A DNA stretch of 20,000 bases. It comes from an uncultured virus (IMG/VR IMGVR_UViG_3300003690_002253) (lineage: Duplodnaviria > Heunggongvirae > Uroviricota > Caudoviricetes). The position numbers and the translations under genes were made by a program. The stretch is taken from the IMG/VR virus record IMGVR_UViG_3300003690_002253; one strand, 5' to 3'. Shown one piece after another: positions 226 through 19,370 of this stretch; positions within the stretch are counted from its first letter, which is position 1, and each line of letters starts with the position of its first letter. The notes under the pieces were generated by a model. The model saw only the letters and a program-made list of their open reading frames with translations. It had not been told where the DNA came from and searched no databases.

Positions 226-239
226 ATCAATCAATCTCC

Positions 240-803: not shown

Positions 804-846
804 AACGTTTTGTCCTTAAACAAACTCCACTCCACCATTCTACACA

Positions 847-1191: not shown

Positions 1192-1262
1192 ATGCCGCCC
1201 TCCGTGGCTTGCATGTTCGACTGTACTTAACTCCTAAGGCAGAATAGAAACCCCCAAATGTT

Positions 1263-1841: not shown

Positions 1842-1843
1842 CT

Positions 1844-1878
1844 AAAAGGGGCCGAGAACATTGTCCCCGGCCCCTTTT
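1844..1878 (-). terminator. Intrinsic terminator-like hairpin, possibly bidirectional
   Basis: AAAAGGGGCCG (1844-1854) and CGGCCCCTTTT (1868-1878) form a perfect inverted repeat. On the minus strand the stem extends by G-U pairs (GGGAC/GUUCU) and is followed by UUUU. Confidence 0.75.
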
Positions 1879-2006
1879 GTTGCACGCGTGCAATTAACTC
1901 TGAACTTATTTAGTAAGCCCCCAGAGAGTGTTTGGGGCTCTATTAGAAACAGCTTAATGCTGTGTTACTACAATCTAACAGATGCGAATACATAAACCAA
2001 TATTTA

Positions 2007-4262: not shown

Positions 4263-4263
4263 A

Positions 4264-5385
4264 CTACCACCCAGACCTGATCACACTCACAATGTGGTCT
4301 ATATCTTTAGCCTCGACCCACCAACCACACGGAATACAAATCATGTCTGAGCACACCTCGTCTGTGCCGGGGAGGGGAACTCGGTACTTGGCAAGACAGG
4401 TATGCTTGTCGTTACGGTCATGTACTCGACTACACGCAATCCCTTCCCCCTGCAACTTCTTCACAAAGTCATCTCTTCGCTCTACTCGCAATGTGTAAAT
4501 CCAGTACGAGGAACGACATCTCTCAGGCATGTGATCCAGCAATGTAATGCCATCTACGTCACCCAAGGCAGCATCATAAAGCATCCCGTTGGTTCTATGA
4601 GCATGGACGATTTCTTTGATTGATGCGAAGTTCTGGATGCCGATGACGGCATTAATGTCATTCATGTGGAACTTGTATCCCCATTCTGACACGTTCTGCT
4701 CGCACCGCATGTCAGGACTCTTCTCCCGATCCAATCCAAACCACCTGAGCAGCTTGGCCCTTCGATGCGACTCGTAATCAGGAGAGATGAGCACACCACC
4801 GTCACCTGTTGTAAGGTGTTTGATGGCCTGAAAGCTGTGTGCCACGAAATTACCGTGGTTCCCAAGCACCTTTCCGTCCCATTCTGCCCCGAAAGCATGG
4901 GCAGCATCCTCGATAATGGGCGGTCTGTAGCCATAAAGGTGCTCAGATTCGTCCTGAACGGCCCTCAGAGCGTCCAGATCGCACGGAGTGCCTCCCCAGT
5001 GGACAACCATGATCCCAGCGACGTCTGGCCCCAGCTTACGCCGTAGATCCTGCATATCTACATTGCAGGTGGCCGGGTCGGTATCTACCCAGCGAATGTC
5101 GTATCCATTCGCCAGTATGGGGAAGTTGGTAGCTGTGCAGGTGAGAGGGATCGTGAGTATCGTGTTACGATCGCCTGCATGCTTTCGAATAAGGTGCAAT
5201 GCCAGATGAAGAGCAGACGTACCAGCATTCACAGCAGCACACAAAGAAGTACTCGTGTACTCCTTCAGTAGCTCCTCGAACTCGTCAACCTTCGGACCTT
5301 GTGCAATGTATCCGGATTGAAGAACGTCACTGAGAGGGGATGTCACGCCCTCGGCGACAAAGACTTTGAACAACGGGATGTTCAC
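4264..5385 (-). CDS. DegT/DnrJ/EryC1/StrS-family PLP-dependent sugar aminotransferase
   Basis: QGPKVDEFE, VNAGTSALHLAL, IIEDAAHAFG, PLP-lysine motif SFQAIKHLTTGDGG and GYKFHMNDINA. GTG start with AAGGAG SD at 5392-5397. Confidence 0.95.
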   Translation of the reverse strand: MNIPLFKVFVAEGVTSPLSDVLQSGYIAQGPKVDEFEELLKEYTSTSLCAAVNAGTSALHLALHLIRKHAGDRNTILTIPLTCTATNFPILANGYDIRWVDTDPATCNVDMQDLRRKLGPDVAGIMVVHWGGTPCDLDALRAVQDESEHLYGYRPPIIEDAAHAFGAEWDGKVLGNHGNFVAHSFQAIKHLTTGDGGVLISPDYESHRRAKLLRWFGLDREKSPDMRCEQNVSEWGYKFHMNDINAVIGIQNFASIKEIVHAHRTNGMLYDAALGDVDGITLLDHMPERCRSSYWIYTLRVERRDDFVKKLQGEGIACSRVHDRNDKHTCLAKYRVPLPGTDEVCSDMICIPCGWWVEAKDIDHIVSVIRSGW

Positions 5386-5388
5386 TTG

Positions 5389-5754
5389 TTACTCCTTGGA
5401 TTTAAATGGAATCGCCTCCCCGTTTCTTCGTAGTATATCAAAACATTCGGTACAACCCATGTGTGTCCCCTCATGTGATGAAATATAATGATAGGCTCTA
5501 ACCTGCATGTTTGAAGTGAGCCTCCATCGAGAAGCCATCCCAGTCAGCAGTTGATACGTGGACTTGACGTCCTCTCGTGCCTCTGCCTCTCGCAACTTTG
5601 CCGCCTCTTCAGAATCCTCTATCTGCTGCCGCAACTCAGATATTCGCGTTTCAAGAGCACCAACATGCTGAAGCGAAACCATGCTGAATACTACCGAGGA
5701 TGTTAGAAGAAGACAAAACAACAAGTTAAGTCCGATTTCACGTCGCATAACCAT
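5389..5754 (-). CDS. Membrane-anchored coiled-coil protein with a C-terminal His/Cys motif
   Basis: N-terminal hydrophobic helix, coiled coil (LETRISELRQQIEDSEE) and HY...H...H.GC.EC. GGAGG SD upstream. Confidence 0.7.
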   Translation of the reverse strand: MVMRREIGLNLLFCLLLTSSVVFSMVSLQHVGALETRISELRQQIEDSEEAAKLREAEAREDVKSTYQLLTGMASRWRLTSNMQVRAYHYISSHEGTHMGCTECFDILRRNGEAIPFKSKE

Positions 5755-6073
5755 TTCCTCCTAGGGTTATCTTCCCTTCTGTACTTCGTGGCGGTGCTTG
5801 GGGTCTCGCCGGAACCGGGAATGGAATAGGGATGACTGGCTGTATCTGAATGAATATTGGTTTACTCATCATCTCCAGCTGCCCCTTTTCCAGCGCCTCA
5901 AGCCGCTGGTTAACACTCTGACCATCTCCATGGTCAACTTCGTACCTACGAACTTCTCTTCCTGTTAAGCCTCCCAAAAGAAGCAGAGATATAACAGATA
6001 AAAAAGAAGCAATCCTACTCTTTCGCCGAACTTTGACTTTTGATCCAACAAGATCAACAGATTGATGAGACAT
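5738..6073 (-). CDS. Hypothetical single-TM protein with a Pro-rich tail
   Basis: Basic stretch, then TM (IASFLSVISLLLLGGL), short coiled coil and PVIPIPFPVP. GGAGG SD upstream. Confidence 0.7.
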   Translation of the reverse strand: MSHQSVDLVGSKVKVRRKSRIASFLSVISLLLLGGLTGREVRRYEVDHGDGQSVNQRLEALEKGQLEMMSKPIFIQIQPVIPIPFPVPARPQAPPRSTEGKITLGGNGYAT

Positions 6074-6103
6074 TTTCGCCCTCCTTGGCTTAAATCTCGA
6101 AAT

Positions 6104-6331
6104 TTACAGGTTCCTCGCATACACTTGCCAAAACACATGGCCACACAAAAAGCCTGCCATAAAAGATATGACAGGCCACTGTCTTGCCGACTCGTATAAC
6201 ACAACACTAACCGTAGCATCTTCGTTCCCGGTGCAAAGAAGATAGGCGTCCCAACTTCCCATCGCGAGAACAATAAATACGATTAACATCCGTGTTATAA
6301 CTACATGATCCATCTGAGCCTCCTTGCTCAT
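6104..6331 (-). CDS. Small two-TM membrane protein
   Basis: 75 aa with two hydrophobic helices. The internal ATG at 6313 (MDHVV) follows AAGGAGG and may be the real start. Confidence 0.7.
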   Translation of the reverse strand: MSKEAQMDHVVITRMLIVFIVLAMGSWDAYLLCTGNEDATVSVVLYESARQWPVISFMAGFLCGHVFWQVYARNL

Positions 6332-6404
6332 CAGAGTCGCTACATATATTTTCCTTTTTTAGACTGCCTGAGTCTAGGTCATCCCTGTTAATTAACGCTG
6401 GTAA

Positions 6405-7463
6405 TTACAGCAACGCAGCTAGACGTCCGAGTTGTGCTGTCTTACCAAACTGATTAGGACTACCTGTGCGTACCAGCCCGGGCATCTTCTCCGCCCGGTG
6501 CTTAAACCAGTTTTCCCTCGCTGCCCTTGCTTCAGGTGACATATACTCCTCCATCCATTCCTCACCCTCTCGAAGATCTCCGGGCACCCGCTCCTGCTTA
6601 TCGTTCCACTTAAGAGCCTCTTGCGCCTCTTGTGCATTAGTAACGTGCTTCCCCGTAGCTTCGTAATAATTACGCTTAATCGTGGCTAGGAACGCTTCTG
6701 ACTCACGACGGCTTGAGAAATAGTTGGCATAAGACTCTGGATTCTGGCGGTAATAGTCTTGAGACGACTCTCCAAGGTATGTTTTAATATCGTCGTAGTA
6801 GCTCGGGCGATAGTATCGATCCAACTCGGTCCCCGTGGTCGTCGCGCTCGGTGATTGCGATGCATGCGTTAATTCATGTCCGAGCACCTCTGCGCCTTTA
6901 TCCTTGGTGACCAGTCCTCCATACGGATTTGTTGATGGCATGGTAATCCGCCCAGTAATGGGGGAGTAAAACCCGCCGAGACCGATAGCATCCCCTTCAC
7001 CGCCCAGATTTTGATATTCTCGCGCAAAGCCTTCACGTGTTAGCGTGGTAGCAGGAATTTTACGATCAATCGATTTATCAGAAATATCCTGCGTATACGG
7101 TTGCTCAACTCGCGGGTTAGATGCCCGCCACGCTTTGGCGTGTTGTTGCGCTCCCGCTCTATAACCTTTCGGCAATACATCTGCTAACGATACTGACTTA
7201 CGGTCTACAACGGCACGCAAAGATGACCCGGGATAATCTGGCGGCAGTCTCGTGGTATCTACGCCAGCTAAATGCTCCGGGTTTTGGTGTTTAGGGGGAA
7301 GAATTGCAGGTGGAGCTACTGGCTTGATGGTCGTGAACGGGTCCATCGAACCGCCCACCGAATAGGGGTCATCCTCATAGACCCCAAGCGGGCTGTCGCC
7401 CGGCCATGCCTTCTTCTCCATGGCAGCTAGACGTCCGAGTTGTGCTATTTTTTGTAAGTGCAT
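6405..7463 (-). CDS. Leader-bearing protein with a zincin-like HExxH metallopeptidase motif
   Basis: Start reassigned from 7505 to 7463 (MHLQKIAQLGRLAAMEKKA), which matches the sibling leaders and removes the overlap. GGFYSP..GRITM, LGHELTHASQ (HELTH at 6864-6878) and a downstream RESEAF. Confidence 0.75.
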   Translation of the reverse strand: MHLQKIAQLGRLAAMEKKAWPGDSPLGVYEDDPYSVGGSMDPFTTIKPVAPPAILPPKHQNPEHLAGVDTTRLPPDYPGSSLRAVVDRKSVSLADVLPKGYRAGAQQHAKAWRASNPRVEQPYTQDISDKSIDRKIPATTLTREGFAREYQNLGGEGDAIGLGGFYSPITGRITMPSTNPYGGLVTKDKGAEVLGHELTHASQSPSATTTGTELDRYYRPSYYDDIKTYLGESSQDYYRQNPESYANYFSSRRESEAFLATIKRNYYEATGKHVTNAQEAQEALKWNDKQERVPGDLREGEEWMEEYMSPEARAARENWFKHRAEKMPGLVRTGSPNQFGKTAQLGRLAALL

Positions 7464-7477
7464 AGTGAGTAGGCCGT

Positions 7478-7975
7478 TTACCGCTGGTAATTCCGGTAGT
7501 TCCATAGCTTGGGGTAATTAGTCTGCCGGAGTCGCTGCATCGACCGCTTGTTTTTCTGGTACTGAGGGTTAAGTACCGTGCCGTACCCAGAAGGTGCTGG
7601 TACTCTCTGCCTCATGTAATTGAGTCGTCCTTGTACTTCCTCGGGAGTAGCATCAGCCCATGGGTTATTCTGTACTACTCCGTGGGGATCAGTAAGCTCA
7701 CGATAATTATGCATCTCTGCCATCCACTTCTGGTATGCCTCATTGGTCCTCACCGTCGGAACGCCCGGATGCTTCCAGCCCTTAGGTTTATTAGGTATTC
7801 CCGCACTAAAAGGAGCTAGTCCAGAGCCCTTCGGCCCATATAGCGGTTTATTCAATTCCGCAGGAGGCGGCACGCCAGCAAGATTTGGAATCCCTCCACC
7901 TTGTGGAGCCGCGTCCTGAGCCATCTTCCCCATGGCGGATAAACGTCCGAGTTGTGCTATTTTTTTAAGATTCAT
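7478..7975 (-). CDS. Leader-bearing hypothetical Pro-rich protein
   Basis: 165 aa, begins MNLKKIAQLGRLSAMGKMA. Confidence 0.8.
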   Translation of the reverse strand: MNLKKIAQLGRLSAMGKMAQDAAPQGGGIPNLAGVPPPAELNKPLYGPKGSGLAPFSAGIPNKPKGWKHPGVPTVRTNEAYQKWMAEMHNYRELTDPHGVVQNNPWADATPEEVQGRLNYMRQRVPAPSGYGTVLNPQYQKNKRSMQRLRQTNYPKLWNYRNYQR

Positions 7976-8059
7976 TATGTGGTGCCTTTATTCTCGCAGA
8001 CCCAGCCAGATCTGGCGGGTGGATCGGGGCGACTGACTGGCTGGAAAACTCTCTTCTTC

Positions 8060-10246
8060 TCAATCACGCGCTCTATTATCCTCCACGCGCCATTCCATGT
8101 ATTTAGGCAGCTGATTCAAAATTAGGCGCTTCGCCTGCTCCGTAGTAATACTCGGATCTTCCTCAATTTGGTTCTTTATGGCCTTTATCCAAGTCACTAT
8201 TCTCATCGCTTGAAGGCGTTTTTTATCCGCGAGTTCTGCGTATGCACGAATACTATTTAGAGGGTACCCCGGCTCATATAGCAGCGGCGAGCCGGTCATG
8301 ATCGGCGGGAGACTGTACTTGTCTCTCCGGTTGCGATAATAGCTCGGATCTGTGGCCCAGTCCGGCATCTCTGCGAACTCTTTAACTTCATTGAGAACTC
8401 TCTTAAGAGGGTTGGCCCGGCTATTAGCATGTATGTGTGGGTCGTTGTAGTAGGCAGGGCGGTTAGGGCCGTGCGGCAGATTGCTACGTAAGACCTGTCG
8501 TCCCAATGGATCATAAAGCCGCCGACTACGTTCATCTGCATACCCCTCTCCCCTCCGCAGGTGGGCATGCTGCGGGTCGCGCGGGTAGTCGTACTCTCCT
8601 CTTTTACGACTTATATATCCGAGTAATGAATTATCCTCCCTGTAGGACTTCCAAAACTCGTCCGCAAAAGGCCGCTGTCCCGGAGCCATTGTTGTCGTAT
8701 GAGGTGTATGAGAAGGATGAAGCTTAGACAATTGATGAAGCAGATTGAAGTAATTCTGTTGTGCCTTCGTGGCGCGGTCGCGGGGTGCACGATACTCTTT
8801 ATCCACCAGCCGTCCATACTGATGGCCGGTGAGGTTGTAAAAATCGTTTGTGTCGTGAATGTAGTCGCCGAATACCGTCCCGCGCTGCAATCTGCCTCCG
8901 GGACCATACAACTTCTTCATAAGCTCTATCTCACGCTTAGGATCTTTTGAAGGTCCTCCATATGCTGCATTCACCAAAGCCTTCGCCGCAGCGGGATACG
9001 ACTTTTCCTCTATACCGGCTTGACCCATATTTTGACGTGCCGTATCTAATCCCTGCCGAGCTGCCTCGCCAAAACTGAATGGCGACGGTTCGGGGCGGTC
9101 TCGGAAACCCCGTGTTTGCCGTTGACGATTCGCGCTCTCCGTGAGTCCTCTTATTATCTTAGTTCTGAGGTCTGGGCTGACTTGCCTCGTCAACTGAGCT
9201 AAGAGAGGAGAGTTCTCTACACCCTCCGGATCACTTATGGCGGATTGAGCGAGATCCCCGTGAAATTTCCTCTGCTCTTCTCTATATATCGTCGGCATAT
9301 CGTCCGCGATAGATCGCTGAACACCTGTTATCGCTAGTCCGAACGGCGAGAGACTTCTGACGATATCAATAACAGCTGAGCGAGTGGGATGCTCTTGAAG
9401 GCGATGAGCCGCACTTCGCTGCATGCTGGGATATACCTCTCTTCCTGTTTCACGCCACAAGGCCCGAGCAACAGGATCATTCCTACTAAAACTATGAGGC
9501 AACAAACGTAACGCATCACTCCCTTGTATACTTTTTGTAAGTTCTTCTGCCTCATCAGAAGTTAAGTTAGCCAGCTGACCAATTTGTCGAGCATAACTCG
9601 CAGGCTGCTGATACATAACTTGATTAGTTGATTCAAAAGCTGCTGCCGTGGCAGCTCCAATAGGTACAGCCTTATTTATTAATCGCAAAGCATTAGCCGT
9701 GCTCTGACGTGTACGGTCAAGAACGCGCGGAGTCTCTGATTTAGGTTTGGGAGGATTCCAGCCCTTGGGGACGAGAGACAGGGGGCCCTTCGGCTTCAGT
9801 GGTTTGAGAAATCCCTCTGCACTCAAGCCCGGTGGCCTGTCCAGCCCGGGATAACGTGGGTTAATAATAGCACGACCTAGATCAAGCGCTTTTATAGGCT
9901 GCCCCACGGGAACACCAGTGATACCACGAGTAACCTTACCCCCGGCACCCTGAATCGCTTTTAAAACCGCCCGGGAGAAGGCAGCCTTCTCCATGGCTGC
10001 TTGACGTGCATCTTGATAATCCAAGATATTTTGTGAGGACAAACCACCCGGCACTAAACCCTGCGTCCCCATCATTTTCCTCACCCTCGGAGCCACGAAC
10101 TGGTCCATGATGAGACCCATGATGTCGGTTCTCCTCTGCGGGGGCGCAGTCACCACGGGAGCAAATCCCTGACCCAACTGATTCAACAGCATCAAGTCCG
10201 TCTGCCCAACCTGACGTCCGAGTTGTGCTATTTTGTGAAAACGCAT
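8060..10246 (-). CDS. Large leader-bearing hypothetical protein with a split leader
   Basis: 728-aa ORF. Begins MRFHKIAQLGRQ, with RQAAMEKAA at residues 81-89. Confidence 0.85.
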   Translation of the reverse strand: MRFHKIAQLGRQVGQTDLMLLNQLGQGFAPVVTAPPQRRTDIMGLIMDQFVAPRVRKMMGTQGLVPGGLSSQNILDYQDARQAAMEKAAFSRAVLKAIQGAGGKVTRGITGVPVGQPIKALDLGRAIINPRYPGLDRPPGLSAEGFLKPLKPKGPLSLVPKGWNPPKPKSETPRVLDRTRQSTANALRLINKAVPIGAATAAAFESTNQVMYQQPASYARQIGQLANLTSDEAEELTKSIQGSDALRLLPHSFSRNDPVARALWRETGREVYPSMQRSAAHRLQEHPTRSAVIDIVRSLSPFGLAITGVQRSIADDMPTIYREEQRKFHGDLAQSAISDPEGVENSPLLAQLTRQVSPDLRTKIIRGLTESANRQRQTRGFRDRPEPSPFSFGEAARQGLDTARQNMGQAGIEEKSYPAAAKALVNAAYGGPSKDPKREIELMKKLYGPGGRLQRGTVFGDYIHDTNDFYNLTGHQYGRLVDKEYRAPRDRATKAQQNYFNLLHQLSKLHPSHTPHTTTMAPGQRPFADEFWKSYREDNSLLGYISRKRGEYDYPRDPQHAHLRRGEGYADERSRRLYDPLGRQVLRSNLPHGPNRPAYYNDPHIHANSRANPLKRVLNEVKEFAEMPDWATDPSYYRNRRDKYSLPPIMTGSPLLYEPGYPLNSIRAYAELADKKRLQAMRIVTWIKAIKNQIEEDPSITTEQAKRLILNQLPKYMEWRVEDNRARD

Positions 10247-10260
10247 GACATTATTCTTGA

Positions 10261-10594
10261 TAAAAGTGGTGAGCTGGGCAATAGCACCGAGGTTGATGAG
10301 TCACTGGTAGGCATAACCTAGACATCTCCAATAAACTCACCGCCTTTAAGTCTCTTGCCACTACCCGGCAGAAGAGACCGGTTTTGCGTGCAGAGATAAA
10401 GAGCGAAGGGGGTCTGAGGTACCCGAAACTCCTGCTCTGCCGCTCCTACTGCCCGGAGTTCCGTCGACGAGGTTTTTTCCCCAGCAGAACCCAAGGGAAG
10501 ATCCCCGAAAAGCCTCCCCTAATAGCTACTCGTGTGGTCAGGTTCCCGAAAACCCACCTCGCCCAAGCAGCCTGCGTACTCACCCGGTAGTCGC
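10261..10594 (-). ncRNA. Candidate structured RNA of unknown family
   Basis: A ~400-bp gap without a convincing ORF. It contains several nested helices whose G-U pairs work only on the minus strand, plus a UUCG-capped hairpin (see findings). Folded by eye only. Confidence 0.5.
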
Positions 10595-10617
10595 ACTAGC
10601 GCCTCCAAATCCATTTA

Positions 10618-10673
10618 ATCCGGTATTCCTCCATGAATAGTCAGTCCGTAGGTTACGGCACGGGGTAATCTTG
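10618..10673. repeat. 56-bp direct repeat, copy A
   Basis: 54/56 identical to 11164-11219. Covers QDYPVP-stop plus the downstream non-coding DNA. Confidence 0.95.
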
Positions 10674-11153
10674 CAAACGATTGATACTAAATTGACCTTC
10701 CGCAAGATCTTCAAGATACGGCTGATTTAACTTAGCAGCTTGTCCGGGAGCACGCTTACCCGGCGAAGATGGAATAGTATAACGTGATGGAGCGCCTAGC
10801 CCAGAAGCACTTAGATCGGGATATTTGAATGCTGGATGACCCGGCATCACCAGAGGACCAGTAAAGCCGGGATTTTTCTTACGTGCTGCCTGCATCAACT
10901 GGGCATACTGTCTCTGCTGATGAAATTTAGCCATAGGGCTCAAAGATTCCAAATCTCCAGTCCCATGAATTAACTGACGAATACCTTCTGGTGATTGCAG
11001 CTGCTGTTTAAACGACTTGACAAGCTCGGCATCCTTTGGCACCTTTGGTAGCTTTGGCGGCTTAACACCAGAAAGAGCTTTACTAACTGCCCGTTGGCCC
11101 ATCTTTTCCATGGCAGCTAGACGTCCAAGCTGTGCTATGTGTGGGTAGTTCAT
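10653..11153 (-). CDS. Leader-bearing hypothetical Lys/Pro-rich protein
   Basis: Start reassigned from 11180 to 11153 (MNYPHIAQLGRLAAMEKMG). Ends QDYPVP. Confidence 0.8.
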   Translation of the reverse strand: MNYPHIAQLGRLAAMEKMGQRAVSKALSGVKPPKLPKVPKDAELVKSFKQQLQSPEGIRQLIHGTGDLESLSPMAKFHQQRQYAQLMQAARKKNPGFTGPLVMPGHPAFKYPDLSASGLGAPSRYTIPSSPGKRAPGQAAKLNQPYLEDLAEGQFSINRLQDYPVP

Positions 11154-11163
11154 TTTCACTTTT

Positions 11164-11219
11164 ATCCGGTATTCCTCCATGAATAGTCAGTCCGTAGGTT
11201 ACGGTACAGGGTAATCTTG
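11164..11219. repeat. 56-bp direct repeat, copy B
   Basis: 54/56 identical to 10618-10673. Both mismatches are at third codon positions of PVP. Confidence 0.95.
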
Positions 11220-11684
11220 ATGGGGAAGAGCCTTGGATGGCTTTCGCGGACCACGAAGCAAACGGTTAAGCGGCTCTGCTAACCCTCTCACTTTATCGAT
11301 TATCTCGTTCGACTTCTCTCCACCGGGACCATACCCACTAGAAAGAGCAGCCCCACCACCAACTGCACCCACCGTGGCACCAGCACCCAGTATAGCTGAT
11401 CGAATTTTCTTGGGATCATACTGACCACGTTGAGTTAAAGGACGAGTTCCAAGCGGCTTATCCCCTTTCAGTATATTTAGGTATTGGTCATGCGGTATCC
11501 CATACCGCTTCGCAAGGCGTTCCAAGTCGGGGCGGAGTCTACCCCCTACGGACGAGGGTGCGAATGGACTAAAACCGCGAGCGACAGCGGAAGTTGGTGG
11601 CTTAGGTTTAAAAAAGGCTCGCTGAGCTGCCTTCTCCATGGCAGCTAGACGTCCAAGTTGTGCTATTTTGTGGTAATTGTTCAT
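11199..11684 (-). CDS. Leader-bearing hypothetical protein with a Gly/Ala-rich hydrophobic helix
   Basis: Begins MNNYHKIAQLGRLAAMEKAA. Contains AILGAGATVGAVGGGAAL and ends QDYPVP. GGAAGG upstream. Confidence 0.85.
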   Translation of the reverse strand: MNNYHKIAQLGRLAAMEKAAQRAFFKPKPPTSAVARGFSPFAPSSVGGRLRPDLERLAKRYGIPHDQYLNILKGDKPLGTRPLTQRGQYDPKKIRSAILGAGATVGAVGGGAALSSGYGPGGEKSNEIIDKVRGLAEPLNRLLRGPRKPSKALPHQDYPVP

Positions 11685-11722
11685 GGTATTACCTTCCAGC
11701 CTACAGGCTGCAATTTACTTCT

Positions 11723-12382
11723 CTACTTTACACCCCGTGGTTTTCCGACCCACACCAACTTAGCTTGAACTGTACCAGACTGAGGATTCACCTTGAAGGG
11801 ACCCATCTTATAACCACTCTCCTGAGCCAATATCCGATACGCAGACAGCCTAGGTTGACCCTGTTTGTCAATGCTGAGGGAGAGCACTCCCTTAGATCTT
11901 GACCCATCAATTATTTTCAGCATTGAAGCTTTCATATCCTTCGGCTGGTTGACCCAAAACTTGTCTGCGAATTTTTGGTCTCTGATTCTCAGCTGTTTAA
12001 TCCGTTCTGGTGTGAGCTTGGTAGCAGTGGTTGGTTTAGCTGCCGGAGTAGTTGCTACTGGTTTAGTCGGAGGTACAGCTGCTGGCTGCGCCGGTTTAAC
12101 TGGCATAGCTGCTGGTTGCGACAACGGGGCATCTCTGTACCCCTTCACCCCCTTACCATAAAGAGGATGGGTCGAATCAATCAGGTGGGGAATCTCAGGT
12201 GTCTCATTCAGTCGTCGGGGAAGATATGCCTCCCTCCCCGGCATCTCAGGTGCGGTAGGAACCTTCGGCGGCTTTGGTACCGCCGTTGGTATCTTTGGCG
12301 TTTTTTTGAACAGTGACTTCGGAACAGCCATCTTTTCCATGGCAGCCAAGCGACCCAGATTAGCCATATGGTCAAAATTCAT
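11723..12382 (-). CDS. Leader-bearing hypothetical basic Pro/Ala/Thr-rich protein
   Basis: Begins MNFDHMANLGRLAAMEKMA. QPAA/KP low-complexity linker and a probably globular basic C-terminus. Confidence 0.85.
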   Translation of the reverse strand: MNFDHMANLGRLAAMEKMAVPKSLFKKTPKIPTAVPKPPKVPTAPEMPGREAYLPRRLNETPEIPHLIDSTHPLYGKGVKGYRDAPLSQPAAMPVKPAQPAAVPPTKPVATTPAAKPTTATKLTPERIKQLRIRDQKFADKFWVNQPKDMKASMLKIIDGSRSKGVLSLSIDKQGQPRLSAYRILAQESGYKMGPFKVNPQSGTVQAKLVWVGKPRGVK

Positions 12383-12396
12383 TACTTGCTCATAAG

Positions 12397-15300
12397 TTAA
12401 GGTACTGGAATTGGTATACCTGTATCTGTTGTTGGCTTAGGAACAGCTGTATCTTCCTCTTCAGGTGGTGCGGTAGGTACTGCACCGGGCTCTTCGGCAG
12501 TTCCGCCGGGGACTTCTTCAGATGGTATGGTAGATGCCCCTATCTCAGGCTCTGCGGCAGTGGCAGCAGCCTCGTTACGCTGCTTGAAATACGCATCAAC
12601 TTGTGCTTTTGAAAACCCGGCGTGTCGGCCCATTTCATAATAAGTTATATTATATTCTGAGTTCGTATCGCTTCCACTTCTTGCGTCGGGGAGGACATAT
12701 TGGTCGAGCTGTGCCATAAGGGATGCGTTAGCTCCGGCATCAGCATCGGCATCAGCTCCGGCACCAGCTCCGGCACCAGCTCCGGGAGCATTCGCGTTAG
12801 CCTTCTCTGCACCGCCGAACAGACTACCGAACACCATCGGAAGGATAAACATAGCAAGTCCGGCCATTCCTGCCGTGGTGTTGCCACTTATTAATCCTCC
12901 AACACCTAAAGCTCCTCCAGCAATCATAAGTAATTTCAGAATAGGACTCATGTTCGCTACAGCCTCTGGTCCCATGACCATGCCCAGCAACGAGTCCATA
13001 CCAATCGACTTAGTGAACTTGTTAATATTTTCACCCATGCCGCCCAACAGATTGAAGCCGCCTGCTCCCATCTTGTCCAGAAGCATGGCTTTAACCTTGT
13101 CATGGCCTTCAGTCTCAATTATATGTTCAATAATCTTTCCTTCTTTCGCGGCAATGAACAACTTACCTAGCTTCGTCTCAGGATCTCCCAGCTCCGCGAC
13201 CATTTCGAGGTCAATACCCAGCTTTTCCGCAATGGCTTCGATGGCTCCGGGACTGTTCGTTAGCTTGTCGTATGCCTCTTGCCCAGCGAGGAGTGTGACG
13301 CCTCCTCCTACCGTTCCCCCTATCACCTTCCGAGTTAGGCTACCCGGTCTGGGCTCCGGGACAGCCGGTGTGACGGGAGAAGTGCCCAATGCTTGCAGAG
13401 CTGCGGTGTTCCTCGCCGCCCGACTGTCTGCCTCTTCAGCGTCTAAGCGAAGCGTCTCAGCTCTCTGTAGCCGAATCAACTCTGCCGCGTCAGCGTCTTC
13501 GCCGAAATCTAGCTTAAGTTGTCTCTCTGGTGTTGGCTTACCAGTGACTTCGTCGATGGCCTGCTGTGACGCCGGATTCGGCTGACGAGGACCATGCGTT
13601 TGCTCCAGCGGTTTCCGGCGGCCAATATTGGGAAATAGCTCAAGTTGCTCAGGTTGACCAGTCAAAACAGAGCCAGCGCCTAGATCAATCTCTTGATACC
13701 CCGCCTCAACCCTTCTTCTATTGTAAGCAGCCGGACTCTCCCCCCGACGCTGGTTTATCACTTGTCGTTGTGTGCTGGGTATAGGTGGTCCTTCTGGCGT
13801 CGTTGGTGTTACTTTTGGTTTTACTTTTTCTGGTGATGATAGTGATGCTGGCCCTTCAGGCACGTCTAGTTTCTTTGGTGGTGTGAACAGTCCAGTTGCG
13901 AGTGTTTTTGTAACCTCCGGGTCTGGTCTGACGGGGATGTTAATTACGTTGGACCCGCGCGATCCCAGCCCTCCCTTTATCGGCTTCTTGGGTGTGACCA
14001 CTGACTTCGGAACAGCCACCTTTTCCAGTAGCTGGGGGATATTTACCGCTCGCAGCTCTGTAATAAACTCATTTCCTACCAATCCCGCAGCCTTTTCCAG
14101 TGCGTTAGGTAGCAATTCAACAGCGAGACCACTGTTAATCAGACCGCCAAAAAAGGCACACGGGAAAGGAGCATAGCCCGCTTCCTTGAGCATCTTAATT
14201 GCATCTTGCGGAATATGTACGCTTGCAAAATCAGCAGCGCGAGCCCACCAACCGTCTGAACCACCGGGCTTACCTGTCACAAATGGACGCCGAGGCTGAT
14301 GTGCTGACAGGCCAGCTGACACTCTATCTGACGGACTCGGAACTGCGTAAGTACTTGCTTTTCCAGTCGATACCTTCTTCGGTACGGGCATGGGAGGACC
14401 AAGCTCCTTCGGCGCTGTCCCTTCATAGAGCTTTAGTCCGGGCCTGTTGTAACTCCAACGTCGATCCTTGGATAAGGGATATTGCTTGTTTTTACCAAGA
14501 AGATAGTCTTTAACAGCCGCATCCGTACGTCTCTCTTTCTCTCGCTCCCAGTCACGTGTGGGAGGATTATTAAACTCCTCGCGTACCCATTCCTCATGCT
14601 TCATGTCAGGATGCACAGCGTTACAGTCATGACGTGGTCGCTGATCCGCTGGCTGCATGGCGTATTTCGAAAGAGCAGCCTTCTCCAAGGAAGCCTTCCA
14701 CTCTTCATGAGTCTGATTGGGATGTACTCCATGGCAATCATGTCGCGGAGTCTGATCAGCAGGCTGTTCGGACTTACCGTACTTGTCCATTACTGAACTA
14801 GCTATCTGTGTCCCAACACCAAACGGCTCTGCCTTATTTCCATCTTCGTCTACAAAGTCAGCATGCTCCCGTTCGGTACCATGCTCATCAATGTACTCCC
14901 ACCGCCAGTTTTGACGATAAATTTTCTTACCGTCAGGTGTAGTAGCGAATAGTTCCCTGTCCTTTGGGTGCTCTTTCTTCTTCTCTTTCTTCGCGTATTT
15001 ACTCATCGCCTCTTTTGCATCGTCTACGTAGCTGTCCTCGTCTTCCTCCTCTTCTGCATGCTCGTCATCTTTGTCCCTGTTGAGATATTTGTATAACCCA
15101 TAACCACCTAATCCCAGCGCACCCGCGCCAACAGCCAGCTGGGGCCAGTGGTCCCCTAACCAGTCACCCTTATCATCCTTAGCTGTAAGACCTGTCGCTT
15201 CGGCGTCCTGTTTCAGGGTTTCCTGCCTCGCTTGATCCGTGTGAAGTGGTGTCGCCGGTACACCATCCGACTTCGGGTCTTGTTCCTCACGCCACTTAGT

Positions 15301-16992
15301 GTCCGCTGCCCGCCTCTTCCCAGCCGGGGACTTCGGGTCCAACGAGTCAACCGCATAGCCCTTGTCGGCGCGGCGCTGGTCGTCCTCGGAATCCCGTCGA
15401 TGTCCGGTCCGTTCGAAGAATTCTTCGTCCGTGGCGTGGTCGCCAGTGATATCGGTGTCATCCCAGCTCAGCAGATTACGACCCCGGCCCGGGTTCCCGA
15501 AGGTATTGACTACTGGTGGGGTGGTATTGACTACTAGTGGGGTACCTCCCGGACCCCGCAACATGTAGGCCCCGCCACCGAGTACACCAAGCCCACCGGC
15601 AACAGCAGCAGTAGGTTTGAGGTATTTCGTTAAAGCCCTCTGCGCTACCTTCTCATATCCCTGCTTCTCCGCTCCTGTCTTCACATACTTATCAATGCTG
15701 CCCTTCTCAGTAGTATCCGGCAAAAAGCTGCCAGCACCGGGAGCAGTTACAGAACCACCCTGAATAGAACCGCCCGTACCAGACTCCGGCAAAAAGCTAC
15801 CCGCATTAGGAGCAGTTACAGAGCCACCCTGAATATCTTTCGAGTTTTGCGGTTCAGGTATCAGCCCACGCAATCCGAAGCGGCGTTCAGCTTGGTTGTA
15901 ACCCGGTCCAAAATTTCTTGGGTGCGGAGAGGGCTGTTGTCCCTGAAGCTGTCCTTGGATGAAAGTGCCTGTCTCATTACGAGGTTCACCGGGAATTCCC
16001 GGGGGCAACTGATCAGTTTTAAGCTTCAACTCGTAGCGTTGTCGCTGCAACTCCTCAGCTTTTGCGCGACCAAGGGAACTCCCATAACCAGCGGGATTAA
16101 ACATGGATGGATTCCACGGTTCCATCACCTGTCCACTGTCGGGTTCCTTCATGAGGGGCAGCTCCTGACCCGTCTTCACGTACTTATCAATGCCAGCCGT
16201 TTCCCATGTACCCGGAGCGGGGGGCTTTATCTCTGGTGGCACTGGCAGGCCACCTCGGAGCGATTTCAGGAAAGTTCGATCCACTTGTCGTTCACTTTGG
16301 GCTTTAGTTCGAGCCGCTTTTCGGTCGCCTCTAGCTAAAATTCGATCGACCCGACGATAAGTTCTCGGTGTAGCAGGCTTGTCACCACCACGAGGTTTTT
16401 GCTCACCTTGGGGTTTAATTCGGTCCACTTTTCGTTCGCCTTTAGCTACCATTCGGTCGGTCTGCCGCTGCTGCCGATCTCCTTGGCGTGTACTCTGACG
16501 GTAAGCTCTCTCGTCTGTCTTCGCATCTCCCGTCTTCATGAACTTGCTCAGACTCTCCCATGCAGCAGGACCAGTCGCGTGATCCTCGTCACGTGTGGTG
16601 AAGCTGACACCATTGTCCTCACCAGTAGAGGAACGCTGATCCTTGCTGTTGTCCTGAGCTGCATATTTATTAACGGCAGGAAATGCCATCTGGTTGCTCT
16701 GGTTTAGCTGATTAATGCTCGCCTGAACATCTTCAAGTCCTGCTCCACTGATATTGGCAGAGGACGCGTACGGATTCTGTGGGCCTTCGTTACCGGCACC
16801 AGCACCAAGTGAAGCGGCTCCTGCATATGGGAAGCTCTTACTCATGGGCCCTAAATGAGTAGGGGCATTCCCTACACCCGGCAATCCGGGGACGGGAGAC
16901 TGCTGGACAGCATTCTGGCCGCCAAGCATGCCCATGCCGTCGACATTTAAGCCTGCGTTGTCCTGAGCCGCTTTTGTGCGTTTTTTAGCCAT
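12397..16992 (-). CDS. Very large modular low-complexity protein, putative polyprotein or internal virion protein
   Basis: 1531-aa ORF with AGGA upstream. Many K-Y-[AVG], K-T-G and EK-x-[AG] sites, internal duplications and several Gly-zipper hydrophobic segments. Confidence 0.9.
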   Translation of the reverse strand: MAKKRTKAAQDNAGLNVDGMGMLGGQNAVQQSPVPGLPGVGNAPTHLGPMSKSFPYAGAASLGAGAGNEGPQNPYASSANISGAGLEDVQASINQLNQSNQMAFPAVNKYAAQDNSKDQRSSTGEDNGVSFTTRDEDHATGPAAWESLSKFMKTGDAKTDERAYRQSTRQGDRQQRQTDRMVAKGERKVDRIKPQGEQKPRGGDKPATPRTYRRVDRILARGDRKAARTKAQSERQVDRTFLKSLRGGLPVPPEIKPPAPGTWETAGIDKYVKTGQELPLMKEPDSGQVMEPWNPSMFNPAGYGSSLGRAKAEELQRQRYELKLKTDQLPPGIPGEPRNETGTFIQGQLQGQQPSPHPRNFGPGYNQAERRFGLRGLIPEPQNSKDIQGGSVTAPNAGSFLPESGTGGSIQGGSVTAPGAGSFLPDTTEKGSIDKYVKTGAEKQGYEKVAQRALTKYLKPTAAVAGGLGVLGGGAYMLRGPGGTPLVVNTTPPVVNTFGNPGRGRNLLSWDDTDITGDHATDEEFFERTGHRRDSEDDQRRADKGYAVDSLDPKSPAGKRRAADTKWREEQDPKSDGVPATPLHTDQARQETLKQDAEATGLTAKDDKGDWLGDHWPQLAVGAGALGLGGYGLYKYLNRDKDDEHAEEEEDEDSYVDDAKEAMSKYAKKEKKKEHPKDRELFATTPDGKKIYRQNWRWEYIDEHGTEREHADFVDEDGNKAEPFGVGTQIASSVMDKYGKSEQPADQTPRHDCHGVHPNQTHEEWKASLEKAALSKYAMQPADQRPRHDCNAVHPDMKHEEWVREEFNNPPTRDWEREKERRTDAAVKDYLLGKNKQYPLSKDRRWSYNRPGLKLYEGTAPKELGPPMPVPKKVSTGKASTYAVPSPSDRVSAGLSAHQPRRPFVTGKPGGSDGWWARAADFASVHIPQDAIKMLKEAGYAPFPCAFFGGLINSGLAVELLPNALEKAAGLVGNEFITELRAVNIPQLLEKVAVPKSVVTPKKPIKGGLGSRGSNVINIPVRPDPEVTKTLATGLFTPPKKLDVPEGPASLSSPEKVKPKVTPTTPEGPPIPSTQRQVINQRRGESPAAYNRRRVEAGYQEIDLGAGSVLTGQPEQLELFPNIGRRKPLEQTHGPRQPNPASQQAIDEVTGKPTPERQLKLDFGEDADAAELIRLQRAETLRLDAEEADSRAARNTAALQALGTSPVTPAVPEPRPGSLTRKVIGGTVGGGVTLLAGQEAYDKLTNSPGAIEAIAEKLGIDLEMVAELGDPETKLGKLFIAAKEGKIIEHIIETEGHDKVKAMLLDKMGAGGFNLLGGMGENINKFTKSIGMDSLLGMVMGPEAVANMSPILKLLMIAGGALGVGGLISGNTTAGMAGLAMFILPMVFGSLFGGAEKANANAPGAGAGAGAGADADADAGANASLMAQLDQYVLPDARSGSDTNSEYNITYYEMGRHAGFSKAQVDAYFKQRNEAAATAAEPEIGASTIPSEEVPGGTAEEPGAVPTAPPEEEDTAVPKPTTDTGIPIPVP
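12730..12785. repeat. 12-bp tandem repeat, coding (GAGAGAGADADADAGA)
   Basis: Units agctccggcatc / agcatcggcatc / agctccggcacc / agctccggcacc / agctccgg. Confidence 0.85.
14587..14766 (-). repeat. Duplicated 23-aa His/Cys module (period 111 bp)
   Basis: QPADQTPRHDCHGVHPNQTHEEW (14698-14766) and QPADQRPRHDCNAVHPDMKHEEW (14587-14655). Confidence 0.9.
15716..15835 (-). repeat. Coding tandem duplication (period 69 bp)
   Basis: IQGGSVTAPNAGSFLPE and IQGGSVTAPGAGSFLPD at 15785-15835 and 15716-15766. Confidence 0.9.
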
Positions 16993-17035
16993 GTGTCAGT
17001 GTTCCTGTCTTCATGTACTGGTCAATGCAGCTATG

Positions 17036-18223
17036 TTACTCCCCCAGATCCGATGAGGAGCTATTTTGCTGATCCTCGTAAGCTCTCATGGCGTCACCAG
17101 CCATAGTCGCCGGGGCCATAGAAGCTCCCAAAGCTCCCATCCCTGTGAGACCAACCTGCATAAGAGAACCGCCAAGATAGCCTAGCCCTGCACCGCCTGC
17201 ACCGCCAAGAGCAGCCCCGGGAATGCCCACCATTAAAGCACGCTTGAGTACTTCACGAAGTCGACTTCGCTCTTCACCCTCTTCATCTTTTCCCGGGAAT
17301 GCGAGCCCGTGTAAACCACCAGCAAGTGCACCAGCACCTCCGACTAATAGACCACCTCCTATGCCGCCTGCTATGGCTCCCTCACGTGGCATACCCTTTC
17401 CCGCTTCCATCAGTCCTAGCGAGGCATCCATCAGCTCTGCCGTGTTGCTTGTTGTTTCCGGCTTCGCGTACTTATCAATGCCGCCCTTATTTAGTTGCCC
17501 GCCCGGCCTTTTGCCGCCAAAAGCTTTACTCATCTCAGCAGACAACGCGTTAGGGGCACCACCTATGAACTGACCAAGACGACGTGACCCGTGCGCAATA
17601 CTTTTGGCAGCATCCAAGTTTCTTGGGATACCTTGCCTGCTTCCAGCGTAAACGTGACTTCCAGACGGAGTAGACCTACCAGCTCCCGAACCCCACGGAG
17701 TAGCCTTGTGAGCACCCAACAACTGCTCTGGAGTAGCCGAATTATCAACATTGGCCCTTATCTGCATATTCGTGAGGCCGTGTTTATTCGTTGGTAAAGA
17801 GAAAGGAGCACGAGCATACTTATCAATACCGCCCTTTTCCCCAATGACTCGCCCTGTATTACTCTGGCGGTCTCGCATCAGCGTGTTACCCAAGTCGACC
17901 CCAGCCCGAAGCGGTCCTCCGGGTGTCATATACCGTGCCATTCCTCCCGCGAGGCCCATACCCGTGTCTTCCGCCACGGTCTGCCAAAATTCCGTGGGTG
18001 TTCTTCCCCCAAACCCCGGGGCGGAGCGACGTTCAGGGTCGAGGAACTTGTAGGGTGCGGTGGTAGGTTCTTCTCTATCTAATCGGGTGGGTTCGCCAAT
18101 GGTATCGAACTGAGCCGTTCGCGCGGGGGTCGGCTCTGGTACTTCCTGCCCCTTCTTCTCTAAATATCGCTGACAGATGGCAGCAGTACGTCCAAACCTG
18201 TCACTGGCTTCCTTAAGTTTCAT
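17036..18223 (-). CDS. Hypothetical protein with a divergent leader, two KGGIDKYA sites and a C-terminal Gly-zipper hairpin
   Basis: Start reassigned from 18298 to 18223 (MKLKEASDRFGRTAAICQRYLEKKG), which removes the overlap with the upstream gene. Two long Gly-rich hydrophobic segments near the C-terminus. Confidence 0.8.
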   Translation of the reverse strand: MKLKEASDRFGRTAAICQRYLEKKGQEVPEPTPARTAQFDTIGEPTRLDREEPTTAPYKFLDPERRSAPGFGGRTPTEFWQTVAEDTGMGLAGGMARYMTPGGPLRAGVDLGNTLMRDRQSNTGRVIGEKGGIDKYARAPFSLPTNKHGLTNMQIRANVDNSATPEQLLGAHKATPWGSGAGRSTPSGSHVYAGSRQGIPRNLDAAKSIAHGSRRLGQFIGGAPNALSAEMSKAFGGKRPGGQLNKGGIDKYAKPETTSNTAELMDASLGLMEAGKGMPREGAIAGGIGGGLLVGGAGALAGGLHGLAFPGKDEEGEERSRLREVLKRALMVGIPGAALGGAGGAGLGYLGGSLMQVGLTGMGALGASMAPATMAGDAMRAYEDQQNSSSSDLGE

Positions 18224-18260
18224 TTTTCTACCCTTGGTTACTAAAGAGATGTAAAAACTG

Positions 18261-18920
18261 TCATCTGGGTCGATCCTCACTACCAAGTGGGGGCTCACCG
18301 AGACCCGGAGGCACGCCTAGACCGCCACCGAGACCGCCACCAAGAGGAGGCCAACCGCGAAGAGGATTACCACCGGGACCGCCGCCGTACGCTGGGAAGG
18401 GCAGTGGAGATCGCTGAGGGCGTGAGTCCTTCGGAAGCTTGAAAGGAGAATCGTCGGGATATCCGCCCCGTGGCCCGAAGGGCGATCTACCGAATGGGTT
18501 AGTCGATGGGTCAGGCCGATCCGTTGGCATGAGGTCAAGAGGTGCCTCGCCTCGCTGCTCCCGTGGAATCGACGGTACGCCGTACTGATACGGGTCATAG
18601 CCGGGGCCATATCCCATATCTGCCCCTGTGTTAGTAGGGTCATTAATTGCACTATCCATCATCCCCCGGATATCCTCGGAACCGTGAATATCGCGTAGAC
18701 CTTCCATCGAGCCGAGGGCACTAGCACCAGCACCAGCCCGAGTAGCGGGATGATTACCCCAGTTTTTACCTGAGCTGCCGGGAGCAGTAGGTTCATAATT
18801 ACCCCAGTTTTTACCTAAGCTGCCGGGAGCAACAGGTTGCTGGGCCTGCTTATACATGGCATCCGCAGCACTGGAGCGAGCAATATTAGCTATGAGACTA
18901 ATTGTGTTTCTGTCTATCAT
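18261..18920 (-). CDS. Hypothetical Gly/Pro-rich protein with a divergent leader
   Basis: MIDRNTISLIANIARSSAADAMYKQA followed by QQPVAP. AAGGA upstream. Confidence 0.8.
   Translation of the reverse strand: MIDRNTISLIANIARSSAADAMYKQAQQPVAPGSLGKNWGNYEPTAPGSSGKNWGNHPATRAGAGASALGSMEGLRDIHGSEDIRGMMDSAINDPTNTGADMGYGPGYDPYQYGVPSIPREQRGEAPLDLMPTDRPDPSTNPFGRSPFGPRGGYPDDSPFKLPKDSRPQRSPLPFPAYGGGPGGNPLRGWPPLGGGLGGGLGVPPGLGEPPLGSEDRPR
18753..18831 (-). repeat. Coding tandem duplication (period 45 bp)
   Basis: 18753-18786 and 18798-18831 are 33/34 identical (APGS[LS]GKNWGN). Confidence 0.9.
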
Positions 18921-18962
18921 TCTAGAATTCCTTGTTATTGTTGTTTCTGCTCACACTACTAA

Positions 18963-19370
18963 TTAGGGCATGCCATATCTAAGACTATCAATATCCATAT
19001 CCCCGGTTTCTATCGGAAGCGTTTGTTGCGGTCTCTCTTCCTCTTTCTGTCCAGTTAGTTGCTTGTAGTAATTAAGGAGAGGATCGTATGTACGCCCACC
19101 AAGAGCACCAAGACCACCACCAGCAAGAGCACCAATTAAGGCACCTCTACCGCCTCCCAGCAGTCCACCACCCAAAGCACCAATCCCAAGGCCACCTACT
19201 CCACCAATAATGGAGCTTTTGGCTTCAGGAGAAAGACCTTCCCAGTAACCCTTGACCGTGTCGCCAATAGAGCCGAACGAATCACCAATAGAACCCCAGT
19301 CAACAGCAAGCTTGACTTCTTCTCCACGGGCAGCCGCACGGGCAATATAGGCAATCAATTCCGCATTCAT
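18963..19370 (-). CDS. Small glycine-zipper membrane protein with a divergent leader
   Basis: MNAELIAYIARAAARGEEVKLA, then IIGGVGGLGIGALGGGLLGGGRGALIGALAGGGLGALGG (GxxxG repeats). Confidence 0.8.
   Translation of the reverse strand: MNAELIAYIARAAARGEEVKLAVDWGSIGDSFGSIGDTVKGYWEGLSPEAKSSIIGGVGGLGIGALGGGLLGGGRGALIGALAGGGLGALGGRTYDPLLNYYKQLTGQKEEERPQQTLPIETGDMDIDSLRYGMP

Follow-up and report, generated by a model that had tools for sequence, protein, structure and literature searches.

In phage T4, the internal proteins bear targeting propeptides of 10 residues, proteolysis splits the core proteins into several fragments, and processing is blocked by an Asp placed before the cut (PMC9026906). 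In phage SPN3US, paralogues have an identical N-terminus that carries the cleavage motif (PMC10052503 and PMC5694885), and the phage 'polyvalent proteins' are large, built of many modules, and predicted to be packaged and then cut into units by a zincin (PMC5512222). The locus described here resembles T4 cargo bearing a capsid-targeting sequence (CTS), giant-phage head proteolysis and the polyvalent proteins in function, and is by sequence a member of none of them. It lies in a stretch of 20,000 nucleotides (nt), called the window below, from an uncultured virus (IMG/VR record IMGVR_UViG_3300003690_002253), an uncultivated marine tailed phage. Its centre is an open reading frame (ORF) for a protein of 1531 amino acids (aa), along which a short site with an invariant Lys recurs, and the same site ends the leaders of the neighbouring genes. 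We tentatively read this protein as a virion-internal cargo polyprotein whose linkers would be cut by a viral protease, a reading to which we give slightly less than an even chance.

How does the locus compare with the known systems? As in T4 (IPI-III and Alt, with gp21), proteins that are otherwise unlike share a short leader, which closes, here presumably, with a small protease motif; T4 core proteins are moreover cut at several sites (PMC9026906). The leader sequence is unrelated, however; T4 needs Glu at P1, the residue before the cut, in L/I-x-E, whereas here only the Lys behind the presumed cut is invariant; a gp21-type protease (Peptidase_S77) was not found in the sequence examined here, and T4 has no 1500-aa module chain. 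With phiKZ/SPN3US (gp175/gp245, at S/A/G-x-E) the locus would have in common a large phage, as is likely here, shared N-termini with cleavage motifs, many paralogous head proteins, long regions cut at several sites, and A/S/G two residues before the presumed cut (P3). In contrast, there is no sequence similarity, P1 is variable here, and the pieces between the sites are conserved modules, not disposable propeptide. Like the polyvalent proteins, the 1531-aa protein is large and modular, and the HExxH domain of one of its neighbours sits, in relatives, in proteins with InPase, LigD_N, 2H-SAK and SNF2 domains. Unlike them, it has no known effector domain or embedded peptidase and only three small folded islands in its AlphaFold2 (AF2) model, the association with a zincin-like metallopeptidase would exist in trans only, through a separate leader-bearing gene (6405-7505), and neither an explicit repeated linker motif nor a shared leader was found in the available portions of PMC5512222.

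In the open-access literature we found no described phage head polyprotein and none of the motif strings, no linker code common with a leader family and no cassette exchange at such a code. Among eukaryotic DNA viruses, pp220 and pp62 of African swine fever virus are cut at GG-X and vaccinia core precursors at A-G-X, and adenovirus has pVII and pX. These too are particle-internal precursors with a short repeated motif, some of them yielding basic DNA-binding peptides, but the viruses and their cysteine proteases are unrelated and the comparison is an analogy only.

Results

The linker site and its enrichment

A sequence-only reading of the window had picked ten strings from the 1531-aa protein and proposed that one protease releases roughly ten peptides at them. 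All ten are present in the ORF, in the order given, and their DNA coordinates were verified by translation: TKAAQD begins at aa 6, NKYAAQD at 108, SKFMKTG at 149, IDKYVKTGQE at 268, IDKYVKTGAEKQGYEKVAQRA at 433, MSKYA at 663, MDKYG at 735, LEKAALSKYA at 769, LEKAA at 965 and LEKVAVPK at 989 (Table 1). The core of the site is [A/S/G]-[L/M/I]-[E/D/S/N]-K-[Y/A/M/F]-[A/G]. Near the N-terminus, KAAQDN parallels the KYAAQDN at aa 109, and TKAAQ (aa 6-10) is possibly the end of a very short propeptide, to judge from this likeness.

The expected enrichment was borne out by 2000 residue shuffles of the protein. KY[AVG] has 6 occurrences, the shuffle mean being 0.68 (0/2000 with 6 or more), and [ED]K.[AG] has 9, with 3.04 expected (9/2000 shuffles); the wider pattern [LIMV][EDSN]K[YFMAV][AVGM] gives 11 against 0.23 (0/2000), a figure that overstates the significance because the pattern was fitted to the data. 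The nine proteins encoded at 1-6331, taken together, contain 1, 0 and 0 matches to the three patterns. We therefore consider it very improbable that the recurrence is a functionless by-product of composition and internal duplication: some sites are indeed duplicates and the widest pattern was defined post hoc, but no shuffle reached the count of the pre-stated KY[AVG], and the sites are conserved across distant homologues and common to unrelated neighbour proteins, as described below.

A profile was built from 23 aligned occurrences in the window's proteins. Lys is present in 23/23; the residue before it is E in 10, D in 7, S in 3, N in 2 and G in 1, and the residue after it Y in 8, A in 5, M in 4, K in 3, F in 2 and V in 1. 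The hydrophobic position holds L (8), M (8), I (5) or another residue (2), the position before that A (10), S (3), G (3) or another (7), and the last position A (14), G (4), V (3) or another (2). A, S or G precedes the hydrophobic position in 10/13 internal sites (P = 2.5e-4). Glu before Lys is found in the leaders (A-M-E-K) and at four internal sites ([SAL]-L-E-K or Y-E-K), while D, S, N or G take its place in 13/23.

Leaders of the neighbouring genes

Six genes downstream of the 1531-aa ORF open with the consensus M-x2-4-[IM]A[QN]LGR.AA.[EG]K (..IAQLGRLAAMEK..), an amphipathic N-terminal leader of ~17 residues, and the two genes upstream of the 420-aa gene that precedes this ORF carry variants of it (..IANIARSSAAD.. 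and ..IAYIARAAARGEE..). The site alignment and a leader profile agree with the proposal that the internal motif equals the ends of these leaders, in which the spacing from LGR.AA to the site is constant. In a scan of 732 ORFs, taken from the window and related loci, the profile matched the six seed genes and 12 further ORFs of related loci, from residues 3-17 onward; these matches are all at the extreme N-terminus, bar one ORF with a probably mis-called start, and a further match lies at the C-terminus of the 366-aa protein.

In 5 stand-alone genes the leader is succeeded by the junction EK[AVM][AG]-QRA..K.LKP, which is also present at 7 internal positions of the polyproteins, the candidate and its homologues. 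Because it recurs there behind unrelated upstream sequence, the internal sites are the leader end without the leader helix. What recurs at internal positions is this part only, the terminal 5-6 residues of the leader, and not the conserved helix, as predicted for a cleavage site and not for a binding helix. This bears on a different view of the motif, in which it is not cut at all: it would be a short linear motif for docking, or just the conserved 'head' of a cassette that moves by recombination at this joint. The leaders would be targeting helices that stay on, and the 1531-aa protein would act undivided, for instance in ejection or as a multivalent scaffold without a fixed fold. The preference for A/S/G one residue upstream, typical of protease subsites, also speaks against an uncut motif.

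Two of the leader-bearing proteins have unusual arrangements. In the 728-aa protein the leader is split, with IAQLGR at the N-terminus and an AAMEKAA site (aa 81-89) followed by ..SRAVLKA.. within aa 81-95, and looks as if ~70 residues had been inserted. The 366-aa protein bears the element once at each end, since a stretch resembling the leader, ..TAQLGRLAA.. (6414-6449, minus strand), forms its very C-terminus; in the relatives P0010 and P0011 the C-terminal tail is helical and rich in Ala, and an extra PFKSKSQQRWMYA.. domain is present at the N-terminus. A precursor of ribosomally synthesised and post-translationally modified peptides with multiple cores was considered and rejected, given 'cores' of 34-541 aa, leader-bearing neighbours of 161-728 aa and the lack of any enzyme family of such pathways in the window.

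Conservation, modules and exchange points

All long ORFs in the window are on the minus strand. The 1531-aa protein matched 0 Pfam and 0 PHROGs families; homologues comprise seven of similar length (P0002-P0008) and two shorter ones, and further relatives come from 14 marine metagenome loci and two IMG/VR loci. In an alignment of 8 homologues, on which the conservation counts are based, variable cassettes lie in between four conserved cores: a ~43-aa acidic module between KYAAQD and GKFMKT, a His/Cys knuckle, a helical bundle that ends in LEK.A, and a C-terminal hydrophobic hairpin. The site windows make up 6.2% of the length yet hold 9/37 invariant columns (binomial P = 3e-4). Four sites, the two bounding the acidic module and the two EK.A, are retained in homologues of 22-27% identity, and BLAST matches to all distant homologues cover aa 107-156. 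The site residues persist in proteins with as little as ~25% identity, whose DNA no longer shows any similarity, again a point against a motif that serves only as a recombination joint. A homologue of 238 aa (on a 25.6-kb contig) consists of the N-terminal modules only and stops ~90 residues past GKYVKTG.

The blocks between sites differ in composition, in keeping with the sequence-only reading: aa 152-271 have 26% R+K and a net charge of +15, aa 272-436 are rich in G, P and Q, aa 437-666 contain Gly-zippers and have a net charge of -13, and aa 739-772 are rich in His. Exchange points were mapped by ungapped homology to the closest homologue, P0002. The homology breaks at aa 157, behind LSKFMKTG, and is back at 442, behind IDKYVKTG; it breaks again at 669, behind MSKYA, and is back at 741, behind MDKYG, so that the cassette between sites 663 and 735 is absent from P0002. 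In all, 4/12 major breakpoints lie at most 10 residues behind a site (P = 0.01). The upstream 420-aa gene is 87% identical over aa 145-278 to aa 681-814 of P0002; its 116-aa module, a separate gene's module here, is an internal polyprotein cassette there.

A 27-nt DNA repeat spans four sites, both IDKYVKTG and both of the 420-aa gene (the copies being 70-89% identical to the reference). Between that gene and the 1531-aa ORF, a spacer of 43 nt contains a relic, ..IDQYMKTG.., in the frame of the upstream gene past its TAA stop; a second TAA follows, and the relic overlaps the ATG of the big ORF out of frame. From its sequence, the relic looks like the scar of a gene fission or of a cassette move. 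Read-through from the 420-aa gene into the 1531-aa ORF was rejected, as the second stop follows the relic and the ORF starts in another frame.

Cassette exchange at the sites, the repeat over four of them and the spacer relic would all fit recombination at repeated DNA, and speak for the uncut motif introduced above; the varied residue before Lys is unusual among known head proteases, no protease is proven, and one site lies inside a folded bundle. Weighed against the points on leader helix, protein-level conservation and subsite preference, an uncut motif seems to us rather unlikely.

Several further observations concern the modules themselves. A 12-nt tandem repeat (12730-12790, 4 copies) codes for a GAGAGAGADADADAGA run just behind the C-terminal membrane hairpin. 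On an unrelated-looking viral contig (L001; T4-like sheath, tube and gp15 genes; CheckV 5% complete), a 201-aa ORF (6189-6794, plus strand) is largely two copies of the His/Cys knuckle (..PRHDCN.VHP...HEEW), and since the ~23-aa module is doubled there it exists outside the polyprotein too. Three proteins of the block have Pro-rich C-termini: IPIPVP in the 1531-aa protein (12397-12414, minus strand), and DYPVP in the 161-aa (11199-11213, minus strand) and 175-aa (10653-10667, minus strand) proteins. Homologues terminate in PPIPAMP or PPIPALP, and P-x-x-P closes several of the neighbouring proteins at related loci; such a tail may be a second, C-terminal signal.

Table 1. Coordinates of the candidate polyprotein, its sites and modules, and the surrounding genes in the window
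Feature	Coordinates	Strand	Basis or remark
Candidate polyprotein P0001, 1531-aa modular protein	12397..16992	-	ORF and translation
N-terminal site-like TKAAQ, aa 6-10	16963..16977	-	kept in P0002 and P0004
Site VNKYA, aa 107-111	16660..16674	-	Y110, A111, Q113 invariant in 8 homologues
Site LSKFM(KTG), aa 148-152	16537..16551	-	L148, K153, T154 invariant
Site IDKYV(KTG), aa 268-272	16177..16191	-	within DNA repeat D1
Site IDKYV(KTG), aa 433-437	15682..15696	-	within DNA repeat D1
Site YEKVA, aa 446-450	15643..15657	-	then QRALTKYLKP, as behind neighbours' leaders
Site MSKYA, aa 663-667	14992..15006	-	translation, pattern scan
Site MDKYG, aa 735-739	14776..14790	-	translation, pattern scan
Double site LEKAA + LSKYA, aa 769-778	14659..14688	-	helix 762-773 ends there
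LEKAA, aa 965	14086-14100	-	inside helical bundle; K967, A969 invariant
LEKVA, aa 989	14014-14028	-	end of helical bundle; K991 invariant
Acidic module, ~43 aa	16540..16668	-	alignment; family's most conserved, bounded by two sites
Arg/Lys-rich cassette, aa 152-271	16180..16539	-	net charge +15; absent from P0002
Small beta mini-domain, aa 680-715	14848..14955	-	AF2; cassette between sites 663 and 735
His/Cys module 1 (QPADQ.PRHDC..VHP...HEEW)	14698..14766	-	sequence
His/Cys module 2, tandem duplicate	14587..14658	-	sequence
Conserved helical bundle, aa 915-992	14017..14250	-	AF2 pLDDT (predicted local distance difference test) 74-87
C-terminal hydrophobic Gly-zipper hairpin, aa 1344-1396	12805..12963	-	hydropathy; kept in all homologues
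Upstream 420-aa gene, two IDKYA sites flanking 116-aa module	17036..18298	-	sites 17813-17827, 17465-17479
Relic site in 43-nt spacer, 420-aa gene/1531-aa ORF	16988..17035	-	DNA repeats D1/D2, translation
Two upstream genes, 219 and 135 aa	18261..19370	-	variant N-terminal leaders; relatives in L004
Leader-bearing gene, 219 aa	11723..12382	-	leader 12317-12376
Leader-bearing gene, 161 aa	11199..11684	-	leader 11616-11675; C-terminus DYPVP
Leader-bearing gene, 175 aa as listed	10653..11180	-	leader 11088-11147; C-terminus DYPVP; likely starts at Met 9 codons inside the listed start
Leader-bearing gene, 728 aa	8060..10246	-	first leader half 10181-10240
Leader-bearing gene, 165 aa	7478..7975	-	leader 7910-7969
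Leader-bearing candidate zincin-like metallopeptidase, 366 aa	6405..7505	-	leader 7398-7457; HELTH 6864-6878

Predicted structure of the 1531-aa protein

Residues 1-1100 were modelled with AF2 from an alignment of 19 sequences. The mean pLDDT is 42.3, 947/1100 residues are below 50, and ~87/1100 are modelled as helix; the folded islands are aa 680-715 (three strands, pLDDT 83-86), the short helices 762-773 and 799-807, and the bundle 915-992. The expectation that the sites sit in short helices between modules was met in part, with sites 148, 769 and 989 at helix ends and 965 in the bundle, the rest lying in low-confidence coil. The C-terminal third gave no usable match in the ESM Atlas. A tape measure protein was rejected on the low helix content and on the lack of any tape-measure family among the Pfam or PHROGs matches.

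The predicted disorder of most of the protein, together with the variability of its cassettes, would also suit a disposable core or scaffold, which would be cut at the sites so that the fragments mostly leave the prohead and free room for DNA, and would not be a cargo precursor. Fragmentation of core proteins at multiple sites and long propeptides are established (PMC9026906, PMC10052503 and PMC5694885). The cores kept throughout the family (acidic, His/Cys, bundle and membrane hairpin) look like working parts rather than filler, however, and among the leader-bearing neighbours is an enzyme-like protein; a disposable core is thus improbable in our estimate.

A candidate metallopeptidase in the block

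The enzyme-like neighbour is the 366-aa protein, which reached the cut-off of no Pfam family. An exhaustive profile search yielded 90 relatives at E <= 1e-3, and in 25/90 the domain is embedded in a protein of at least 900 aa. Pfam was scanned on 60/90, 27 weaker and 3 very short relatives being left out, and 12/60 matched families including LigD_N (4), 2H-SAK (3), InPase (2) and SNF2/helicase (1), domains by which the polyvalent proteins of phages are recognised (Iyer et al. 2017, PMC5512222). One relative, P0028, gave 26.1 bits with DUF6782, a putative metallopeptidase family, under the cut-off of 27. Across 45 aligned sequences, H210, E211, H214 and E268 are conserved at 90% or more.

The AF2 model has a mean pLDDT of 74.8 and a core mostly above 90. 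HExxH lies in helix 201-215 and the putative third ligand, E268, in helix 266-284, behind a small sheet; strands are predicted at 150-155, 179-181 and 186-190 and a helix at 115-129, and the leader is modelled as helix 7-32, with a disordered linker behind it. This layout (HExxH helix, three-stranded sheet, N-terminal helix, Glu helix) agrees with the description in PMC5512222. Foldseek against the PDB returned nothing at E <= 1e-3, with lethal factor (E = 0.09) and collagenases in the top rows. The best VIA-align results were YbeY (Z 5.3, root-mean-square deviation 3.6, 110 residues) and lethal factor (Z 4.5), and to judge from their titles ~30/50 rows are metallopeptidases or HExxH hydrolases, with no row reaching the bar of Z 8. 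Top rows in BFVD (E 1e-3 to 1e-2) are a phage 'internal core protein', 'internal protein D', and structural and polyvalent-protein-associated proteins, whereas the sequence profile found in PDB sequences only chance Gly-rich matches (E ~0.3). The ESM Atlas gave scores of at most 0.88 and TM (template modelling) values of at most 0.38, with DUF1570, WLM, M78 and LPD23 as leads only. The Foldseek, VIA-align and BFVD searches are weak but coherent. Complex prediction for aa 95-346 (the core) and a fragment that contains a site (aa 420-470) gave a score of 0.00, from which nothing is drawn.

Genome context

The window's contig is 77,470 bp long. Among 185,579 prokaryote species, one genome each, the 1531-aa protein has 0 relatives (244 pattern matches, none related), and the family is confined to contigs of viral or metagenome origin. 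Megablast and tblastn searches of 50,697 GenBank phage records gave no match for the ORF, the 1531-aa protein or the 366-aa neighbour, and Pfam and PHROGs had no family for the leader-bearing neighbours. The contigs of relatives, from IMG/VR and marine metagenomes, carry genes for tubulin-like, HNH and Holliday-junction-resolvase proteins and for many sugar-modifying enzymes. The phage is probably large: because CheckV rates a 33.8-kb relative 15% complete, the genome is probably above 200 kb. Two related viral fragments gave no match to Terminase_6N or to Peptidase_S77, the latter result being uninformative since control genomes were silent too.

In two distant relatives, a tubulin/FtsZ-like protein (PF00091, E ~1.5e-9) is encoded a few kb upstream of the homologue of the big protein (L010 2224-3675, plus strand; L017 2011-3432, minus strand). 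Within the window, two adjacent paralogous genes (2603-4262, minus strand; 267 and 287 aa) match no family and lie amid DegT aminotransferase, GNAT and sulfotransferase-like genes, in what is probably a phage sugar-modification module; homologues of these paralogues in related loci have a conserved N-terminal ..GY.CACYFG.RRR...

Discussion

What could be the role of a linker site shared by a long modular protein and its neighbours? We propose that the block at 6405-19370 encodes virion-internal proteins that would be packaged into the head and probably ejected. On the stand-alone members the leader would be a targeting sequence like the T4 CTS, ending in a protease site, and the 1531-aa protein would be a chain of cargo modules in which the leader helix is left out and the site alone is kept between modules. 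A virus-encoded protease would cut at the linkers, either in the prohead or after delivery. Genes for head, portal, terminase or maturation protease were recognised neither in the 20-kb window nor in related fragments, and we therefore infer the head location only from the logic of the leader and from precedent.

The scissile bond would most likely lie between the variable residue and the invariant Lys, in which case the leaders would be cut as A-M-E/K (the slash marking the cut). This placement fits the A/S/G-x-E of phiKZ/SPN3US, and it is also the position that would be read by a zincin specific for P1', the residue behind the cut. If all linkers were cut, about ten pieces of 5 to 541 residues would result, namely the ~43-aa acidic peptide, an Arg-rich piece, Gly-zipper and acidic pieces, the beta mini-domain, two His/Cys knuckles, the helical bundle and, at the C-terminus, a piece of 541 aa that includes the membrane hairpin. 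The count of roughly ten peptides in the sequence-only reading is fair only on that condition. As for its broader proposal of a polyprotein, the motif is real, homologous to the leader ends and marks module junctions in a protein made mostly of small, predominantly disordered modules, whereas the protease is the part that did not come through: no head-maturation protease was found in the window or in the related fragments.

Several other observations weigh against cleavage of a cargo precursor. Glu stands before Lys in only 10/23 sites and Asp in 7/23. The sites are in part not independent, the two IDKYVKTG copies lying in the 27-nt repeat at 81% identity; the tandem duplication of the two His/Cys modules, each behind a KY[AG] site, calls for the same caution. 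A site at 1305, absent from the list of the sequence-only reading, is not conserved in the closest homologue, and the site at 965, modelled within the helix bundle, is probably structural. Moreover, 8/12 breakpoints lie away from sites (466/514, 552/572, 819/910, 1005/1228), and the low pLDDT is weak evidence of disorder because the AF2 alignment had only 19 rows.

Which type of enzyme could read such a site? Since Asp blocks T4 processing, the mixture of E, D, S, N and G before Lys argues against a strict T4-type enzyme, and it suits a reader of Lys at P1' somewhat better. Lys-N-type zincins recognise Lys at P1'. A more daring proposal is that the enzyme would be no classical serine prohead protease: the stand-alone zincin candidate of the block, itself bearing the leader, would be packaged with its substrates and would cut the linker code by reading the P1' Lys, the cassettes being shuffled between genomes at the sites. 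The cassettes would then be DNA-condensing, membrane-inserting and metal-binding, and tailed phages would possess a metalloprotease-based maturation of cargo. We regard this whole proposal as a long shot.

Even if the linkers are left intact, the motif marks junctions as a conserved element in a lineage of marine phages that is so far unexplored. If they are cut, this would be an unusually explicit tailed-phage polyprotein that can be read from sequence, with a targeting leader, a five-residue separating code and cassettes that move at that code. The predicted, little-tested processing of packaged polyvalent proteins would thereby gain a testable system with defined sites and an adjacent candidate enzyme, and the leader and linkers would be a natural toolkit to load several peptides into a capsid.

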